From Candidatus Omnitrophota bacterium (lineage in GTDB: Bacteria; Omnitrophota; Gorgyraeia; Gygaellales; Profunditerraquicolaceae): a stretch of 62,509 nt of DNA. The position numbers and the translations under genes are program-made. Numbering within the stretch: position 1 is the first letter of the stretch; each line of letters starts with the position of its first letter. Of this stretch, positions 3,122-21,759 are shown one piece after another. The notes under the pieces are model-generated. The model was not told the origin of the DNA, searched no databases, and saw nothing but the letters and a program-made list of their open reading frames with translations. Where the stretch lies: contig WOZK01000007.1 in NCBI GenBank assembly GCA_011620275.1, positions 1-62,509 on the forward strand, written 5' to 3'.

Positions 3122-3239
3122 ATAATCTTTTGTCGAAAGGATAATAATCGTTTAAGTAGTCTGGAAATCATTCGGGATTTCCGGAGGATTTAGATGGTCG
3201 GGCCGCCATCTTGCAGGTAATGCGGGATGGCTTTATTTT

Positions 3240-5405
3240 ATGGAAAATCACACAAAGAAAATTAGAGTTTGGCCGGGGCGTCCTAGCCCTTTGGGGGCTT
3301 ATTGGGATGGCAAAGGCACAAATTTTGCGCTTTTTTCGGAAGGCGCTACTAAAGTGGAGCTATGCCTTTTTGAATCACCTGAAAGCCGTAGCGAGTCGCG
3401 CCGGATTCCGGTGATTGAGAACACTGATAGAGTTTGGCATTGTTATTTACCTGAGGTAGGGCCTGGGCAGCTTTATGGTTATCGTGTTTCTGGGCTGCAT
3501 AATCCTGAATTAGGGCATAGGTTTAATCCGAATAAAGTTATTCTTGATCCATACGCTAAGGCGATCGGCAGGGGGCTGTGCTGGCGCGATGAGATGTTTG
3601 GTTACAAAATCGGAAATGCCCAAGAGGATCTGTCTTTTGATGAACGGGACAACGCCGCCTTTGCGCCGCTTGCCGCGGTTATTGATAATAGTTTTGACTG
3701 GAAAGATGATGCTTCGCTCAAGATCCCCTGGCATAGAACTTTGATTTACGAACTTCATGTAAAAGGATTTACTATCCAGAATCCGAAAGTACCGCAGGAT
3801 TTAAGAGGAACTTACACGGGATTGGCTATTGACTCGGTAGTTAATTACCTAAAAGAACTGGGAGTTACCGCCGTGGAACTTATGCCTACTCATTACCATA
3901 TTGACGATAGGCATCTTACGGTAAAAGGTTTAAGCAACTATTGGGGTTACAACACGTTATCTTTTTTTGCTCCCGACATGCGTTACGCGTCTTCGCATAT
4001 TCCTCAAGAAGCTGTTAATGAATTCAAGAATATGGTTCTATCTCTCCATCGAGCAGGGATTGAAGTGATTTTGGATGTCGTTTACAACCATACGGCAGAG
4101 GGTAATCAAATGGGGCCGACACTGTCGTTACGCGGAATAGATAATGTTTCGTATTATCGGCTTTCCCCCAAAAACCAGCGATATTATGAAGATTTTACGG
4201 GGTGCGGCAACACGCTTAATGTGCGGCATCCTCGCGTTGTTCAATTAATCATGGATAGTTTACGCTACTGGGCGCTTGAAATGCACGTTGACGGTTTTAG
4301 GTTTGATTTGGCGAGCGCGCTTGCCAGGGAACTGTACGCTGTGGATAAACTGAGCGCGTTTTTTGACGTAATCTGTCAGGACCCTGTTTTGTCACAAGTT
4401 AAGCTGATCGCGGAACCCTGGGATCTCGGCCAGGGCGGATATCAAGTCGGTAATTTTCCGGTTGGATGGACTGAGTGGAATGGAAAATACCGCGATGCGA
4501 TGCGCAGATTCTGGAAAGGGGACGGCGGCACGACAGGCGAATTCGCTACTCGTTTAAGCGGCTCAAGCGACCTTTATGAACAGAGCGGGCGCAGGCCATA
4601 CGCCAGCGTTAATTTCATTACCTGCCATGATGGTTTTACTCTTGAGGACTTAACCAGTTATAATCAAAAGCATAATGAGGCTAATGGCGAGAATAATAAT
4701 GACGGTGCCAATGATAATAACAGCTGGAACTGTGGCATAGAAGGTGCTACCAAAGACGCGTCAATTATTGATTTGCGTGAGCGTCAAAAGCGGAATTTTC
4801 TTGCTACGCTTCTTTTGTCCCAAGGGGTGCCTATGGTTCTTGCGGGTGATGAAATCGGACGTACTCAGAAAGGAAATAACAACACATATTGCCAGGATAA
4901 TGAATTAAGCTGGATTGATTGGGATTTGACCGAAAATAAAAAAAATCTGCTTGATTTTGTCCGCAGGCTGATTCGCTTACGAAGAGAGCAGCCTGTTTTT
5001 CGAAGAAGGAAATTCTTTCAGGGGCGGGATATCCGGGGTTCGGAAGCCAAAGATATTATTTGGTTTGATGTTAATGGACAGGAGATGACCGATGAAAAAT
5101 GGAATTCTGCCTGGGTCAAGTGTCTTGGAGTTGTTCTGGCCGGGGATACGATACAGGAGACGGATGAGTACGGCGAGCGCATCATCGGAGACACCTTGCT
5201 TTTATTGATGAATTCGTCGCAGGAGGATATTGTTTTTACTTTACCCGCTTACCGAGAGGGTGTGGAGTGGAAACTTATTTTAGATACTTTTGATCCGCGC
5301 GCGGAAGTCATAACTTTAGCCGGACTAAACGGATATAATTTAAGAGGCCGTTCCCTGTCCGTTTTTTTTCTTACGGAAAAACCAGTCAAGAATGGAAAAA
5401 AATGA
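3240..5405 (+). CDS. glgX: Glycogen debranching enzyme (GH13 isoamylase)
   Basis: NYWGYNT, DVVYNHTAEG, DGFRFDLA, KLIAEPWD, NFITCHDGFTL. Confidence 0.97.
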   Translation: MENHTKKIRVWPGRPSPLGAYWDGKGTNFALFSEGATKVELCLFESPESRSESRRIPVIENTDRVWHCYLPEVGPGQLYGYRVSGLHNPELGHRFNPNKVILDPYAKAIGRGLCWRDEMFGYKIGNAQEDLSFDERDNAAFAPLAAVIDNSFDWKDDASLKIPWHRTLIYELHVKGFTIQNPKVPQDLRGTYTGLAIDSVVNYLKELGVTAVELMPTHYHIDDRHLTVKGLSNYWGYNTLSFFAPDMRYASSHIPQEAVNEFKNMVLSLHRAGIEVILDVVYNHTAEGNQMGPTLSLRGIDNVSYYRLSPKNQRYYEDFTGCGNTLNVRHPRVVQLIMDSLRYWALEMHVDGFRFDLASALARELYAVDKLSAFFDVICQDPVLSQVKLIAEPWDLGQGGYQVGNFPVGWTEWNGKYRDAMRRFWKGDGGTTGEFATRLSGSSDLYEQSGRRPYASVNFITCHDGFTLEDLTSYNQKHNEANGENNNDGANDNNSWNCGIEGATKDASIIDLRERQKRNFLATLLLSQGVPMVLAGDEIGRTQKGNNNTYCQDNELSWIDWDLTENKKNLLDFVRRLIRLRREQPVFRRRKFFQGRDIRGSEAKDIIWFDVNGQEMTDEKWNSAWVKCLGVVLAGDTIQETDEYGERIIGDTLLLLMNSSQEDIVFTLPAYREGVEWKLILDTFDPRAEVITLAGLNGYNLRGRSLSVFFLTEKPVKNGKK

Positions 5406-13848: not shown

Positions 13849-14978
13849 ATGATTAAACGAATACTGGAAGAAAATATTATCCAACAAACCTTCCGCGGCC
13901 AAGTTTTAATTATTCAAAGCCCCCCGCCAGGTAGGGAAGACAACCCTTGCGTTGAACGTTACTAAGTCGCTCAAAAGCAAAATGGATATCAGGATTTTTA
14001 ATTGCGACGATCCCGACCATCGCGCTATTTTAGAGAACAAGGGGTTAGAAGCGTTAAAAAGCACCGTAGGCGGTGCCAAACTCATTGTTATTGACGAAGG
14101 CCAGAAGATTTCCAGCATCGGGCAAACCTTAAAGCTTTTAGCGGATTACTATAAAAATATATCCAGATTATCGTGACTGGTTCTTCGGCCATAAATCTTT
14201 TGGACAAGACGCAGGAATCTTTAACAGGCCGGAGAAGAATTTATACATTATATCCTATTTCTGCAGAAGAATCTTCAAAAGGCGCTGTCCCCTCAAGGAA
14301 AAGGTTGGAGTCGCTGCTCGTTTATGGCAGCTATCTGCATGTTATTACCAGCAGAAGGAAACAGGACAAAGTCGATATTCTTAAAGAACTAAAAACAAGT
14401 TATCTCTATCGCGACGTTTTTGATCTTCAAGGAATGAAGAATGCCGATGTGTTTATGAATCTTGTTAAAGCGCTGGAATACCAGATTGGCAACGAGGTAT
14501 CTTATCGAGAGCTTTCGAATTTACTTAAGATCAGCTATGCGACCGTGGAGCGATATTTACATATTTTGGAGCAGACGTTTATAATATTTCATCTACCCGT
14601 TTTTAAACGTAACAAAAGACGAGAGCTTTCCAAATTAAGAAAGATTATTTTTACGATGTCTGCGTCCGCAATGCCGTTATTAACAACTTTAACCCTATTG
14701 ATAAAAGAGACGACCTCGGCGCGTTATGGGAGAATTTTATGGTTGTCGAACGGATGCAATACCGTAAATATCATCAAATCGGGGCTAATCAATATTTCTG
14801 GCGTACCTACGATGGCAGCGAAGTCGATCTTGTAGAAGAGCGTGAAGGTCGTCTTTACGGCTATGAATTCAAATGGAAACCACGGCAGTATCCACAGGTA
14901 CTTGCGAAATGGAATGAATATAAGGGGAGTTCATATCAAGTTATCACGCCAAGCGAAATGAGAGGATTTGTTCACTAA
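13849..14978 (+). pseudogene. AAA_14/DUF4143 ATP-binding protein, multiply frameshifted
   Basis: Pieces in different frames: MIKRILE.., PRQVGKTT (Walker A), IVIDEGQ (Walker B), VTGSS, ESLTGR, LWENF, FWRTYDGSEVDLV..EFKW. Confidence 0.85.
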
Positions 14979-15068
14979 AATCGATGGATTATAAATTGCG
15001 AAGAAAACGACTTCATGAAATTACTGAAGCAAAAATATGAGATGAGGTTGAGAAATTCGCCAAAGATA

Positions 15069-15983
15069 ATGGGAAAATATTCCTGTCTTTTTATAATCTC
15101 GCTGATCGTTGTTCCGTTAATAACATCCCTCGCGGTTCCGCTTTACGCCACGGAGGTCTATCTGAATAATGGCGACAGGATCAGCGGCAGGATAGTCTCC
15201 GATGAAGGGGAACGGCTGAAACTGGAGAGCCCGGTGATCGGGAGCGTCGAGATCCCCAGGGAAAAGGTTAAAGAGATACTTTATGCGAAGTCCGTTTCCG
15301 CGGCGGCAGTCAAAGAAAAGGAGAAGCCGGCAAAATGGACGAGAAGCATATCCGCCGGATACAATAAGTCCAACGGCAACACCAAGAGTTCCAATTTCTC
15401 CGTTCGCCTGCTGATGGACAGAAAGACCGATGCCGATGAGTTCTCCATGAAAAGCGACGGCTATTATTCTTCTGCCAACAACAAAATGGACGCGCAGAAA
15501 TGGTCGGGGATGCTGCGTTACGCTTACCGTTTCCAGGAAAAATCCTGGTATAACTTTTATAAAATAGAGAACGATCATGACAGGTTTGCCAATATTGAAT
15601 ACAGGATTATTCCTTCGACGGGCTTAGGTTACTGGTTTTTCGATACCCCGGGTTTCAAGGCGCTGGCGGAATTCGGCGTGGGTTTTGAGCACACGAGATT
15701 CAGGAAGGAAGAACCGGATCAGAATGAAACGGTACTGATCCCTAGGGTGTTCCTGGAAAAGAAGGTTTTCAGCAGGTCCAAGGTTACGCAGGACATATCC
15801 GTTTATCCCTCTTTGACCGAGTTCGGCGAATACAGATTGCATTCCGAAACCTCCCTGGTGAATCCTCTCAATGAGAAGTTATCTTTATGTTTTAGCTTTA
15901 TTGACGACTATTATTCCGACTCCGCAGAGCCGGCTAAAAAGAACGATTCCCGTTTCATCTCTACATTGAGATATTCGTTCTGA
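15069..15983 (+). CDS. DUF481/YdiY-family outer-membrane beta-barrel (start 15015 or 15069)
   Basis: Signal-like N-terminus, VYLNNGDRISG small domain, amphipathic strands, C-terminal LRYSF. Confidence 0.85.
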   Translation: MGKYSCLFIISLIVVPLITSLAVPLYATEVYLNNGDRISGRIVSDEGERLKLESPVIGSVEIPREKVKEILYAKSVSAAAVKEKEKPAKWTRSISAGYNKSNGNTKSSNFSVRLLMDRKTDADEFSMKSDGYYSSANNKMDAQKWSGMLRYAYRFQEKSWYNFYKIENDHDRFANIEYRIIPSTGLGYWFFDTPGFKALAEFGVGFEHTRFRKEEPDQNETVLIPRVFLEKKVFSRSKVTQDISVYPSLTEFGEYRLHSETSLVNPLNEKLSLCFSFIDDYYSDSAEPAKKNDSRFISTLRYSF

Positions 15984-20097: not shown

Positions 20098-20182
20098 TTG
20101 CCGGTCCAGGGGCATACGCGGGCATCCCGATAGACAACGTTCTTTTATCGAAACAGGATACACTCAAAGCGAGGAGGACTGT

Positions 20183-20632
20183 ATGGGAAGAACGGTAATA
20201 AGCAGAAGGGATGTGCAGAAAAGAAGCAGTTGTCAGGTTCTCGGAGCAGGAGGAAAAACGGAGATGTTAGCCGCCGGTATAGAGGCGGATGCCGCGAAGG
20301 AACCGGACAAATATATGTCCCGTCTCATCAAATACATCCCCGGCGAGATAATAGCCCTTTACATCTATCTGGAAACGGTCGTCCGTTCCCTGCCCCAGAA
20401 CGAGACGCTGTATTGGTCTGCTTTTACTTTTTGTTTTCTGGCTACACCGCTGTATTTGTGGCGCAAGGAGAAGGTGAGTAAGAAATTACAGTTGTTGATC
20501 TCGACGGTTTCCTTTTTCGTGTGGGTCTTCGCCGTCGGCGGGCCTTTTGCGTCTTTAACCTGGTATAACGCGGTTTACGGGGTGATAGGGCTGCCGGTTT
20601 ATACTTTCCTGGTCTCCCTGGTGGAAGCTTAA
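20183..20632 (+). CDS. Uncharacterised 4-TM membrane protein
   Basis: RBS GAGGAGG; polar ~40-aa N-tail, then YMSRLIKYIPGEIIALY and four hydrophobic segments. Confidence 0.85.
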   Translation: MGRTVISRRDVQKRSSCQVLGAGGKTEMLAAGIEADAAKEPDKYMSRLIKYIPGEIIALYIYLETVVRSLPQNETLYWSAFTFCFLATPLYLWRKEKVSKKLQLLISTVSFFVWVFAVGGPFASLTWYNAVYGVIGLPVYTFLVSLVEA

Positions 20633-20653
20633 CAAATTATTCAAGGGGACGGC

Positions 20654-21439
20654 ATGAAGACAATCAAATGCATTTTTATTTTGGGATTAGTTTTCCTTGC
20701 CGGGTGCGCGACCGATCCGCTTACGAGGGCATTAAAAACAAACGGCTTTTGCCCTATTCTTCCGATCCCCGAGAAACAGGGGCTGGGGAATGTTTACCTC
20801 ACCTATTCTTTGAATTCTCTCCCGGTGGTTTTTATAGACGATATTTTCACCAAGGAAGAGAACGAAAAAACGATGGCCGATTTGAAACAGAAGATTTACC
20901 TGCCCGCGTCCTCGGGCGAGAAGACATTTTCACTGGCGGCGAAAGCGGATGTTATAGGCAAAGTCGAGGGGGCGCTTAAAGTTTTACGCGTGAAGAAGTT
21001 CAAACTTAGATTGGGCGATGTTTATCAATATAATCTTACCGAGGACCGGCTTGAAAATGTGATATTACCGGCAATAAGAAGCCGGAAACCCCGTTTGAAC
21101 CTCAAAGACAGATATATCGTATTGGCTTTGCTTCAAGCCTCGAGCTTGGAATATGAGCTTATTGATGAGAACGATAACAAAATTGAGATCGCTCCGGGGA
21201 GTGAGATAGAAAAGATCGTAAAGAACAGCTTAAGCATTGAATGGAAGGCCAACGAGCAAAGCAATCTTGTTATCGACCGTCCTTGTTTCCTGGGTTACAA
21301 GGTCGGCAGGATCATCGAAAAAGGCGGTTTTTATACCGTCAAAAACATAGGTTTTCCGCTTCAGGGAAGCAACGGAAAGCTGAAAGTCCGGGCAATACCG
21401 GCCGAGGAACTGCGCAGGCTTCTGCGCTCCAACAATTAG
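20654..21439 (+). CDS. Gasdermin-like lipoprotein (bacterial gasdermin fold with lipoprotein signal peptide)
   Basis: MKTIK + hydrophobic core + LAG|C18; mature CATDPLTRALKTNGF resembles bacterial gasdermin N-termini; further colinear blocks RYIVLALLQASSL, EIEKIVKNSLSIE and FLGYKVGRI; similar length; manual comparison only. Confidence 0.72.
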   Translation: MKTIKCIFILGLVFLAGCATDPLTRALKTNGFCPILPIPEKQGLGNVYLTYSLNSLPVVFIDDIFTKEENEKTMADLKQKIYLPASSGEKTFSLAAKADVIGKVEGALKVLRVKKFKLRLGDVYQYNLTEDRLENVILPAIRSRKPRLNLKDRYIVLALLQASSLEYELIDENDNKIEIAPGSEIEKIVKNSLSIEWKANEQSNLVIDRPCFLGYKVGRIIEKGGFYTVKNIGFPLQGSNGKLKVRAIPAEELRRLLRSNN

Positions 21440-21495: not shown

Positions 21496-21759
21496 ATGTT
21501 TTGGAATATTATAGGATTATCGGCAGCCTTCCTGACTATGTTCGGTTTCTTGCCGCAGGTAATCAAGATATACCGCACTAAGTCGGTGAACGATATAAGT
21601 ATTGTGACCATCGTGCAGTTCATGGCCGGGATATTTCTCTGGCTGGTGTATGGGATACATTTAAAAAACTTCGCCATTATTCTTGCCAATAGCGTTACGC
21701 TACTGATCCTCGTAGCCGGTTTAGTTTTGTTCATTAAATATAAATTTCAGAAAATTTAA
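21496..21759 (+). CDS. SemiSWEET / PQ-loop sugar transporter
   Basis: FLPQVIKIYRTKSVNDIS, LWLVYG, ILAN; 3 TM. Confidence 0.92.
   Translation: MFWNIIGLSAAFLTMFGFLPQVIKIYRTKSVNDISIVTIVQFMAGIFLWLVYGIHLKNFAIILANSVTLLILVAGLVLFIKYKFQKI

Follow-up and report, generated by a model that had tools for sequence, protein, structure and literature searches.

The bacterial gasdermins (bGSDMs) described to date are leaderless executioners of the cytoplasm: they insert into the inner membrane from its inner side, and their lipid comes from an unusual self-palmitoylation. Could a gasdermin be exported, and take its lipid from the lipoprotein pathway? The question is raised by a gene of a Candidatus Omnitrophota bacterium whose product, P0001, begins with a predicted lipoprotein leader and continues as a gasdermin-like protein. 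The gene lies on contig WOZK01000007.1 of assembly GCA_011620275.1, and the whole stretch analyzed, 62,509 nucleotides of the forward strand, is referred to as the window. An initial annotation, made by eye from the sequence, had proposed an exported gasdermin whose lipobox cysteine is the gasdermin lipidation site, and had gone on to suggest an outer-membrane destination and an offensive role. We find that P0001 is very probably a remote gasdermin homologue, colinear with bGSDMs from the cysteine onward. On balance, we lean slightly toward a reading in which P0001 belongs to the bacterial gasdermin superfamily, is exported by Sec and anchored by a lipid, and would act as a protease-released pore former.

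A predicted lipoprotein leader on a constrained gene

The gene and the N-terminal features of its product are the following.

20654-21439, + strand: open reading frame (ORF) of P0001, a putative prolipoprotein gasdermin homologue of 261 amino acids plus stop (translation table 11)
20643-20649, + strand: Shine-Dalgarno-like AAGGGGA, 4 nt before the ATG, read in the sequence
20654-20704, + strand: predicted signal peptide, residues 1-17, with K2 and K5 in the n-region, an h-region, then L-A-G before the Cys
20696-20707, + strand: lipobox LAGC, residues 15-18, which fits the PROSITE-type rule
20705-20707, + strand: codon TGC of Cys18, the predicted site of lipidation by Lgt, LspA and Lnt and residue 1 of the mature protein
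20705-21328, + strand: gasdermin-like core, residues 18-225, from a C-x-x-DPL...LK..GF thumb motif to an FLGYK motif around the near-invariant Gly214

The longest ORF at this site is 20654-21439 (+), and its 261-residue translation contains every motif quoted in the initial annotation. It also confirms the type II signal described there: a hydrophobic stretch (residues 6-15) leads to Cys18, and residues 2-17 hold no Met. The lipobox passes the PROSITE-type rule, applied as a regular expression. In a 53%-identical homologue, P0004 (locus L003), AGGAGG precedes the ATG. The ratio of nonsynonymous to synonymous substitution rates (dN/dS) is 0.11–0.13 against three orthologues of 90-92% identity, and P0001 is therefore a real, constrained gene. 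It is single-copy in a genome of 1.48 Mb and 36 contigs that is 92.5% complete, in which the window is contig C10. The GC content of the gene, 0.44–0.47, sits at the low end of the neighborhood range (0.44–0.57) yet within it. Scans for promoters and terminators near the gene gave matches at chance level only.

Judged by this leader, P0001 is very likely a lipoprotein. The genome encodes Lgt (195 bits) and LspA (139 bits) side by side on contig C32, both above cut-off, as well as Lnt (358 bits, above cut-off). It also encodes BamA (578 bits), which shows a diderm envelope.

Relatives that share the lipobox

A word-indexed search found six relatives of P0001 at 45-93% identity, and those with a name are all called 'hypothetical protein'. 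In all seven close sequences (P0001 and these six), G-C followed by (A)(T)DPLTR is kept. A profile of the seven was scored against 1.84 billion representatives, which yielded 71 family proteins (cluster representatives) at E ≤ 1e-3, with 57 at ≤ 1e-10 and 41 at ≤ 1e-30. Three alignments with their profiles are used below: A3, the 76-row family alignment; A4, nine rows of a divergent clade; and A5, the core-only subfamily.

The cysteine is the fixed point of the leader in this family. Of the 76 alignment rows, 61 show Cys in the column of Cys18, 13 are N-terminally incomplete and show a gap, and 2 show Leu. The lipobox rule, together with an upstream K or R, is satisfied by 49 of the 61 rows with an aligned Cys, and the length and character of the leader are conserved across the 61. 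Because both the Cys column and the lipobox are conserved in relatives, the signal of P0001 is not a chance occurrence. A maximum-likelihood tree was built from the canonical bGSDM P0084 and the 63 family sequences with 220 residues or more, leaving out shorter rows and P0078-P0083. It separates two clades of the family (support 96/72-74), a core clade with 52 rows, P0001 among them, and a divergent clade with 11. P0084 is set apart from the lipoprotein family by a very long branch. Lipoboxes are present in both clades. The alignments thus strongly support a predicted type II signal peptide with a lipobox Cys as a trait of about 70 sequence clusters.

Two further cysteines are invariant in the nine-row A4 alignment (C68 and C157 in the numbering of P0073). 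A disulfide between them is possible and would be in keeping with export and a periplasmic location. Further homologue searches from P0073, and then from A4, returned almost no new members. The family is rare: with the window genome counted, 4 of 401 Omnitrophota genomes have it, and so do 3 of the 60 others from that genome's own taxonomic family. It is also unannotated: source names read 'hypothetical protein', and the nearest ESM Atlas clusters are auto-named, for example, 'putative Lipoprotein'. The family scores below the cut-offs of the curated gasdermin models and is hence invisible to them.

Homology to bacterial gasdermins

How good is the case for a gasdermin? The sole NCBIfam match of P0001 is prok_gasdermin (NF051890, E 0.045), and its sole PADLOC match is bGSDM (PDLC02986, E 0.0012, 16.3 bits), which pairs residues 105-207 with profile positions 96-200. 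Among 58 family members, 28 match the PADLOC model at E ≤ 0.01 (best 5.2e-11) and no second PADLOC family appears; 16 match prok_gasdermin (best 4.4e-6). When the 76-row profile was compared with all PDB chains, the top four were gasdermins: 8sl0_A (1.6e-5), 7n51_A (1.8e-5), 7n52_A (1e-4), and 9v2s_A (3e-3). Profile positions 22-228 align to residues 4-225 of 7N51, starting at the Cys. The divergent-clade profile A4 matches 7n52_A and 9v2s_A at 1.1e-7. Core and divergent clades are themselves joined by hhalign of A5 with A4 (probability 99.7%, E 1.5e-25, 225 columns), and in a scan of the window genome with A4 the P0001 ORF is the only match (4.1e-20). One A4 member with a lipobox, P0073, carries a precomputed Pfam annotation as PF26164, Bact_GSDM.

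Structure models of two homologues lead to the same family. For P0003 (90% identical to P0001), the ESM Atlas model has a predicted template-modeling score (pTM) of 0.64, and its best neighbor is a cluster that is 85% Bact_GSDM (TM 0.59/0.58 over 217 residues). For P0004 (pTM 0.65) the best neighbor cluster is 61% Bact_GSDM (TM 0.55/0.55 over 207 residues). Bact_GSDM is matched over residues 17-253 and 23-247 in these models, and eukaryotic gasdermin clusters reach a TM of about 0.5. The gasdermin relationship first seen by eye is thus supported by hidden Markov model searches, by profile-to-PDB and profile–profile comparison, and by structure matches in the ESM Atlas.

Several results weigh against this reading, and the first of them concern the homology itself. 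P0001 scores 13.5 bits against a curated NF051890 cut-off of 100. It has no match in our local Pfam copy, which lacks PF26164, and Pfam returned nothing relevant for the ten most divergent family members. A single-sequence phmmer search of the PDB with P0001 found no gasdermin, a seven-row core profile gave no significant match to the PDB gasdermins, and a 17-row profile gave 7n52_A at E 0.26. The PDB link needs the more divergent members, because the single sequence and core-only profiles miss the PDB gasdermins. Comparisons by hhalign of A5, A4, and A3 with canonical P0084 are colinear but not significant (2.1%, 23.5%, and 4.2%, respectively). The homologue models are only moderately confident (pTM 0.64–0.65), and the structural evidence comes from homologues, not from P0001.

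Taken with the weak E-values of P0001 (0.0012 and 0.045), these core-only misses and the non-significant hhalign to one canonical bGSDM could mean that the gasdermin likeness is chance or profile drift, or that the start was mis-called, and that P0001 is an unrelated lipoprotein or a cytoplasmic protein. We consider this highly improbable. Independent lines reach the same family with colinear alignments, both ESM Atlas structure searches rank Bact_GSDM first, and the C-x-DP motif is held exactly in common at the N-terminus. The leader is conserved in 61 rows, and a Shine-Dalgarno sequence stands before the ATG.

The lipobox cysteine and the gasdermin lipid

The lipobox Cys of the family aligns with Cys4 of 7N51 and 8SL0, with Cys3 of 7N52, and with Cys7 of canonical P0084. 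After this Cys, the family profile and the solved bGSDMs all continue with x-DP, a short helix that contains L-K, and then G-Y. A 12-row MAFFT alignment of 11 lipoprotein-type members with P0084 leaves M1, C18, D21, P22, L108, and L160 invariant. In the available part of the Johnson preprint, the palmitoylated residues are C3 of the Bradyrhizobium and C4 of the Vitiosangium protein, and the accessible text of PMC10153256 reports that C4A inactivates the Vitiosangium bGSDM. Cys18 is likely, by its place in the alignment, the positional equivalent of this palmitoylated Cys. The initial annotation had equated the two, and both the PDB and the 12-row alignments bear out the equivalence of position. 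The lipid chemistry is predicted to differ, with lipoprotein triacylation here and S-palmitoylation in bGSDMs.

Two other regions can be compared with characterized proteins. In the region of the first hairpin, solved and canonical bGSDMs are longer by an insertion of 8-11 residues that the lipoprotein family lacks, and the shorter hairpin noticed at the outset holds up. Gly214, near-invariant across the family, aligns with the Gly of the Vitiosangium V-F-G-F-K segment. This segment holds L211 and F213, whose mutation partly disrupts killing by the Vitiosangium bGSDM, according to the part of PMC10153256 available.

The C-terminal tail

Two features follow the core.

21329-21379, + strand: variable linker, residues 226-242, a presumed protease-accessible loop whose length and sequence vary widely in the family
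21380-21436, + strand: conserved C-terminal peptide, residues 243-261 (..IPAEELRRLL..), presumed to be autoinhibitory

P0001 has a 36-residue tail after the aligned core, which resembles the 29-aa C-terminal peptide of the Vitiosangium protein in size and position. All seven close sequences have L253 and R254, and a regular expression for an (I/V)P..(E/D)LR-like motif finds it in 25 of 70 rows with Gly214, in the core clade. Across the family, the tail after Gly214 runs from 9 to 190 residues (median 47). The accessible parts of two sources describe such peptides: the Johnson preprint gives a bGSDM C-terminal inhibitory peptide of about 20 aa, and PMC10153256 a Vitiosangium inhibitory peptide of 29 aa, with residues 1-237 as the active delta-CTD fragment. 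Linker 226-242 matches the bGSDM cleavage region by position and may be cleaved in the same way. By the same analogy, the C-terminal peptide may be inhibitory.

Gene neighborhoods and candidate proteases

We compared five distinct contexts: the window with the genus-level loci, and the loci L003, L004, L022, and L024. The window and four genus-level loci have one gene order in common: UPF0047, the ORF of a 149-aa membrane protein, the gasdermin gene, genes for a PQ-loop/SemiSWEET protein and DUF2284, and lastly a deaminase and a nitroreductase. This order is kept around the homologous gene in a metagenome-assembled genome of Candidatus Undivivens industriae (Omnitrophota; 90% identity), the nearest named record.

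At L003, P0004 lies between a DUF900 alpha/beta-hydrolase upstream and a TPR-CHAT protein 134 nt downstream. The latter, P0083 (L003 6908-10384, + strand), has 1158 aa, a CHAT domain at E 1.2e-56, and, by eye, a His and a Cys in caspase-like surroundings. Its N-terminus has a basic n-region followed by about 20 hydrophobic residues, which suggests that P0083 is exported; with this basic stretch and hydrophobic leader, its bulk should face the periplasm. The DUF900 hydrolase has an N-terminal hydrophobic segment too.

The remaining contexts differ again. At L004, the homologue has a peptide deformylase upstream and DUF6515 downstream; at L024, a 181-aa lipoprotein-like ORF and a methyltransferase are nearby. 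At L022 (359-9479), AAA_14-DUF4143 precedes a 45%-identical homologue, and a PIN gene and the gene of a 638-aa LOG-like-domain protein follow it. Farther upstream are ORFs whose products resemble, by eye, a methyltransferase, an endonuclease, and Vsr. This stretch looks like a defense island. A caspase-like protease thus adjoins a gasdermin homologue in one of the five contexts, L003. In the available part of the Johnson preprint, 43 of 50 bGSDMs adjoin a protease and 7 do not. CHAT and TPR-CHAT proteins are the commonest partners there, with CHAT making up 23 of 59 adjacent proteases counted, some as TPR fusions.

A partner of P0001 was also sought elsewhere in the genome. Peptidase_C14 was not found in the window genome. 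Its single CHAT protein was rejected as a partner, as it lies on another contig, has the order CHAT–transmembrane–TPR, and lacks a leader. Its CHAT domain is probably cytoplasmic. The CHAT gene (L025) follows two ORFs that, by eye, look like those of an ECF sigma factor and of an anti-sigma factor with a zinc finger; the 289-aa one of the two has no Pfam match.

A proposed mechanism and its alternatives

If P0001 is an exported gasdermin, the following course of events is suggested. After export, Cys18 would be diacylglycerylated, the leader cut, and the new N-terminus acylated. The lipoprotein pathway would in this way supply the N-terminal lipid that cytoplasmic bGSDMs acquire by self-palmitoylation of the homologous Cys. 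An inactive gasdermin would then sit on the periplasm-facing leaflet, kept shut by its C-terminal peptide (about 243-261), until a periplasmic protease cut the linker (about 226-242) and freed this peptide. Oligomers of the core could then form a beta-barrel pore in the membrane that anchors them, and the envelope would be breached. In the published activation model (PMC10153256, in the part accessible), the palmitoyl leaves its groove and enters the bilayer, and the fingers then refold. A permanent triacyl anchor would be a bilayer tether from the start, as opposed to a palmitoyl inserting on activation. We give a protease-activated pore an even chance.

The most likely outcome would be regulated self-killing or defense; vesicle or content release and attack on another cell are others. 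Self-killing or defense is favored because the distribution is patchy, one context resembles a defense island, and one locus encodes an apparently exported TPR-CHAT protease.

To the points already set against an exported pore former, the neighborhoods and tails add three more. No protease gene adjoins P0001 in the window neighborhood or the genus-level loci, nor is there an adjacent protease in three of the four other contexts (L004, L022, and L024). The sole CHAT protein of the genome (701 aa; within L025 370-3748, − strand, G000:C26) is leaderless and on another contig. In some family members the tail after Gly214 has only 9-25 residues.

P0001 could instead be a non-lytic envelope lipoprotein that keeps a gasdermin-like fold in a lipid- or acyl-chain-binding, structural, or trafficking role, with no regulated pore. 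Its neighbors in the window are housekeeping-like, with no adjacent protease or other defense gene, and only a very remote likeness links it to functional bGSDMs. Pore-forming bGSDMs have 8-11 residues more in the first-hairpin region, the nearest ESM feature clusters are auto-named 'putative lipoprotein' or 'TamB domain-containing', and the available part of the Johnson preprint describes an acyl-chain-binding hydrophobic tunnel in the inactive gasdermin fold. A housekeeping envelope factor would, however, be unusually rare at 4 of 401 phylum genomes and 3 of the 60 others from the same taxonomic family. The parts of a gasdermin are also kept in order, with a core, a linker that varies, and a C-terminal peptide that is conserved. 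One homologue is paired with the apparently exported TPR-CHAT protease, and the Gly214 motif aligns with the segment whose L211 and F213, per the accessible text on Vitiosangium, contribute to killing. We regard a non-lytic role as unlikely, though worth serious consideration.

Where would an exported P0001 be sorted? In E. coli, Ala at position +2 carries no inner-membrane retention signal. P0001 has Ala at +2, as do 26 of 61 rows, and Asp occurs in 1 of the 61. The initial annotation had taken the +2 Ala to indicate the outer membrane. This destination is not established: the rule is that of E. coli, LolA was not detected in the window genome (92.5% complete), and a LolCE-like gene scores 319 bits, under its 362-bit cut-off.

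The same +2 residue bears on another proposal, that of an offensive or surface gasdermin on the outer membrane, cell surface, or vesicles, which would perforate a host, prey, or competitor. Export would put P0001 beyond the cytoplasmic membrane, and the genome is small (1.48 Mb). There are also precedents: the gasdermin fold became a toxin at least once, in the pyroptolysins (bioRxiv 10.64898/2026.10.05.756811), and lipid-anchored or secreted interbacterial toxins that form giant pores exist, such as CDC-like proteins (resembling cholesterol-dependent cytolysins, CDCs). Yet no secretion-system, immunity, or delivery gene lies beside the homologues in the five contexts, and the offensive role first suggested is not established. 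There is also no match in phage or plasmid collections, LolA goes undetected, and the sorting rule of E. coli may not hold in Omnitrophota. The TPR-CHAT neighbor at L003 fits a layout of sensor, protease, and executioner better than one of toxin and immunity. We therefore think an offensive gasdermin improbable.

The searches for mobile copies were these. A scan of viral contigs found no family member, PHROGs had no match for P0001, and tblastn of a plasmid collection with P0001, P0013, P0046, P0073, and P0076 found no relative, with a single chance match to TetR (E 0.9).

Comparison with known gasdermins

The proteins closest to the exported gasdermin proposed here are the bGSDMs of Runella, Vitiosangium, and Bradyrhizobium (PDB 7N50-52 and 8SL0; PF26164). 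Like them, P0001 is of about 260 aa, and its family is colinear from the N-terminal Cys to a (V/F)-x-G-(F/Y)-(K/R) motif. Both have the start C-x(1-2)-DP...LK..G(Y/F) and a patchy distribution, and both end in a short tail where eukaryotic gasdermins have a large C-terminal domain. As in most bGSDMs, one homologue (P0004) adjoins a caspase-like TPR-CHAT protease. Unlike them, P0001 has a 17-residue leader for Sec and signal peptidase II with a lipobox, and is predicted to lie on the periplasmic side and to receive its lipid through Lgt, LspA, and Lnt. It also differs from bGSDMs in falling far under the curated family cut-off and in its shorter first hairpin, and from most of them in having no adjacent protease gene.

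The only canonical bGSDM found by a PADLOC scan of the 401 Omnitrophota genomes is P0084 (L028 7995-8834, + strand, G358:C1; 220.9 bits), which matches 7N51 at 1.8e-27. It comes from the same phylum as P0001 and has N-terminal C-x-x-DPL..LK in the same alignment columns. Unlike P0001, it has six residues before the Cys, no signal peptide, and an 11-residue insertion in the first-hairpin region. Its upstream neighbor, at L028 6823-7905 (+), encodes 360 aa with an HExxH motif; the product has no relative in the PDB and may be a partner of metallopeptidase type. Weak NF051890 matches in four other Omnitrophota genomes (L005-L008; E 1e-4 to 1e-3, profile positions 20-79) were rejected, as they fall in ORFs of about 790-800 aa, and the one at L005 looks like BamA. 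A weak PADLOC bGSDM match in G259, within a 797-aa ORF, was set aside as well.

Pyroptolysins offer a second comparison. As described in the available part of bioRxiv 10.64898/2026.10.05.756811, they are chimeras of gasdermin and cholesterol-dependent cytolysin with a CDC-type immunoglobulin (Ig)-like sterol-sensing domain. Like P0001 in the reading preferred here, they place a gasdermin fold outside the classical cytoplasmic self-killing setting. Unlike them, P0001 is a single gasdermin-sized domain of 261 aa with a lipobox and no Ig-like domain. The words 'lipoprotein' and 'lipobox' are absent from the pyroptolysin text, as are 'signal peptide' and 'lipoprotein' from the text of the Johnson preprint. 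In the open full-text literature, which excludes subscription papers and supplements such as Johnson Tables S1 and S4, no gasdermin with a lipobox or lipoprotein signal is described, in line with the initial remark that the configuration was not known to have been reported. Databases already hold such sequences without comment, an example being the PF26164 annotation on P0073.

What would follow if the Cys of gasdermins is the lipobox Cys? Gasdermin pore formation would be placed in the periplasm or at the outer membrane, and the conserved N-terminal lipid would have a simple enzymatic explanation. Whether this lipid need only tether the gasdermin becomes testable. The TPR-CHAT neighbor at L003 would suggest that cascades of sensor, protease, and gasdermin can assemble outside the cytoplasm. 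We tentatively raise the wider possibility of a whole gasdermin clade outside the cytoplasm, Sec-exported, lipidated by Lgt, LspA, and Lnt, and in some cases paired with exported TPR-CHAT proteins, which would amount to a periplasmic 'pyroptosis' that senses envelope-side events and makes holes in a membrane from outside. If this were true, the gasdermin N-terminal lipid and the lipoprotein pathway would share an evolutionary origin, with a leader gained or lost before a fixed Cys-x-DP motif.

Adjacent genes and other features of the window

Two genes border that of P0001.

20183-20632, + strand: 149-aa membrane ORF, 21 nt before the gasdermin gene, with two strongly hydrophobic 19-residue windows
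21496-21759, + strand: PQ-loop/MtN3 (SemiSWEET-like) protein of 87 aa, directly downstream

The 149-aa membrane ORF has no family match in Pfam or PHROGs and is under purifying selection (dN/dS 0.09–0.11). It occurs in the genus-level loci L002 and L018-L020 only and is absent from L003, L004, L022, and L024. It was rejected as a conserved partner, being confined to the genus-level loci. The ORF and the gasdermin gene may be co-transcribed. Contigs from four metatranscriptome runs, from a relative 90-95% alike, cover both genes, and two RNA contigs bridge them (X16 record 6, 20134-21279; X17 record 9, 20134-21438). This is weak evidence of expression, as DNA carry-over is possible and the contigs do not prove a single transcript. 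Sequencing runs that hold at least 0.57 of the words are labeled as oil-field or oil-production metagenomes, and two of these may be the source of the DNA; the shares of X5-X20 are small and carry no claim on habitat.

Farther upstream in the window, at 3159-3211 (+), is an nhaA-I RNA (Rfam RF03057; 41 bits, gathering score 37), just before an ORF at 3240-5405. This ORF and the next two, to 10307, have alpha-amylase and CBM48 domains. A 220-aa ORF at 14173-14835 (+) matches only the DUF4143 part of an AAA_14-DUF4143 ATPase and is possibly a truncated gene. It is followed at 15015-15983 (+) by a DUF481 protein.

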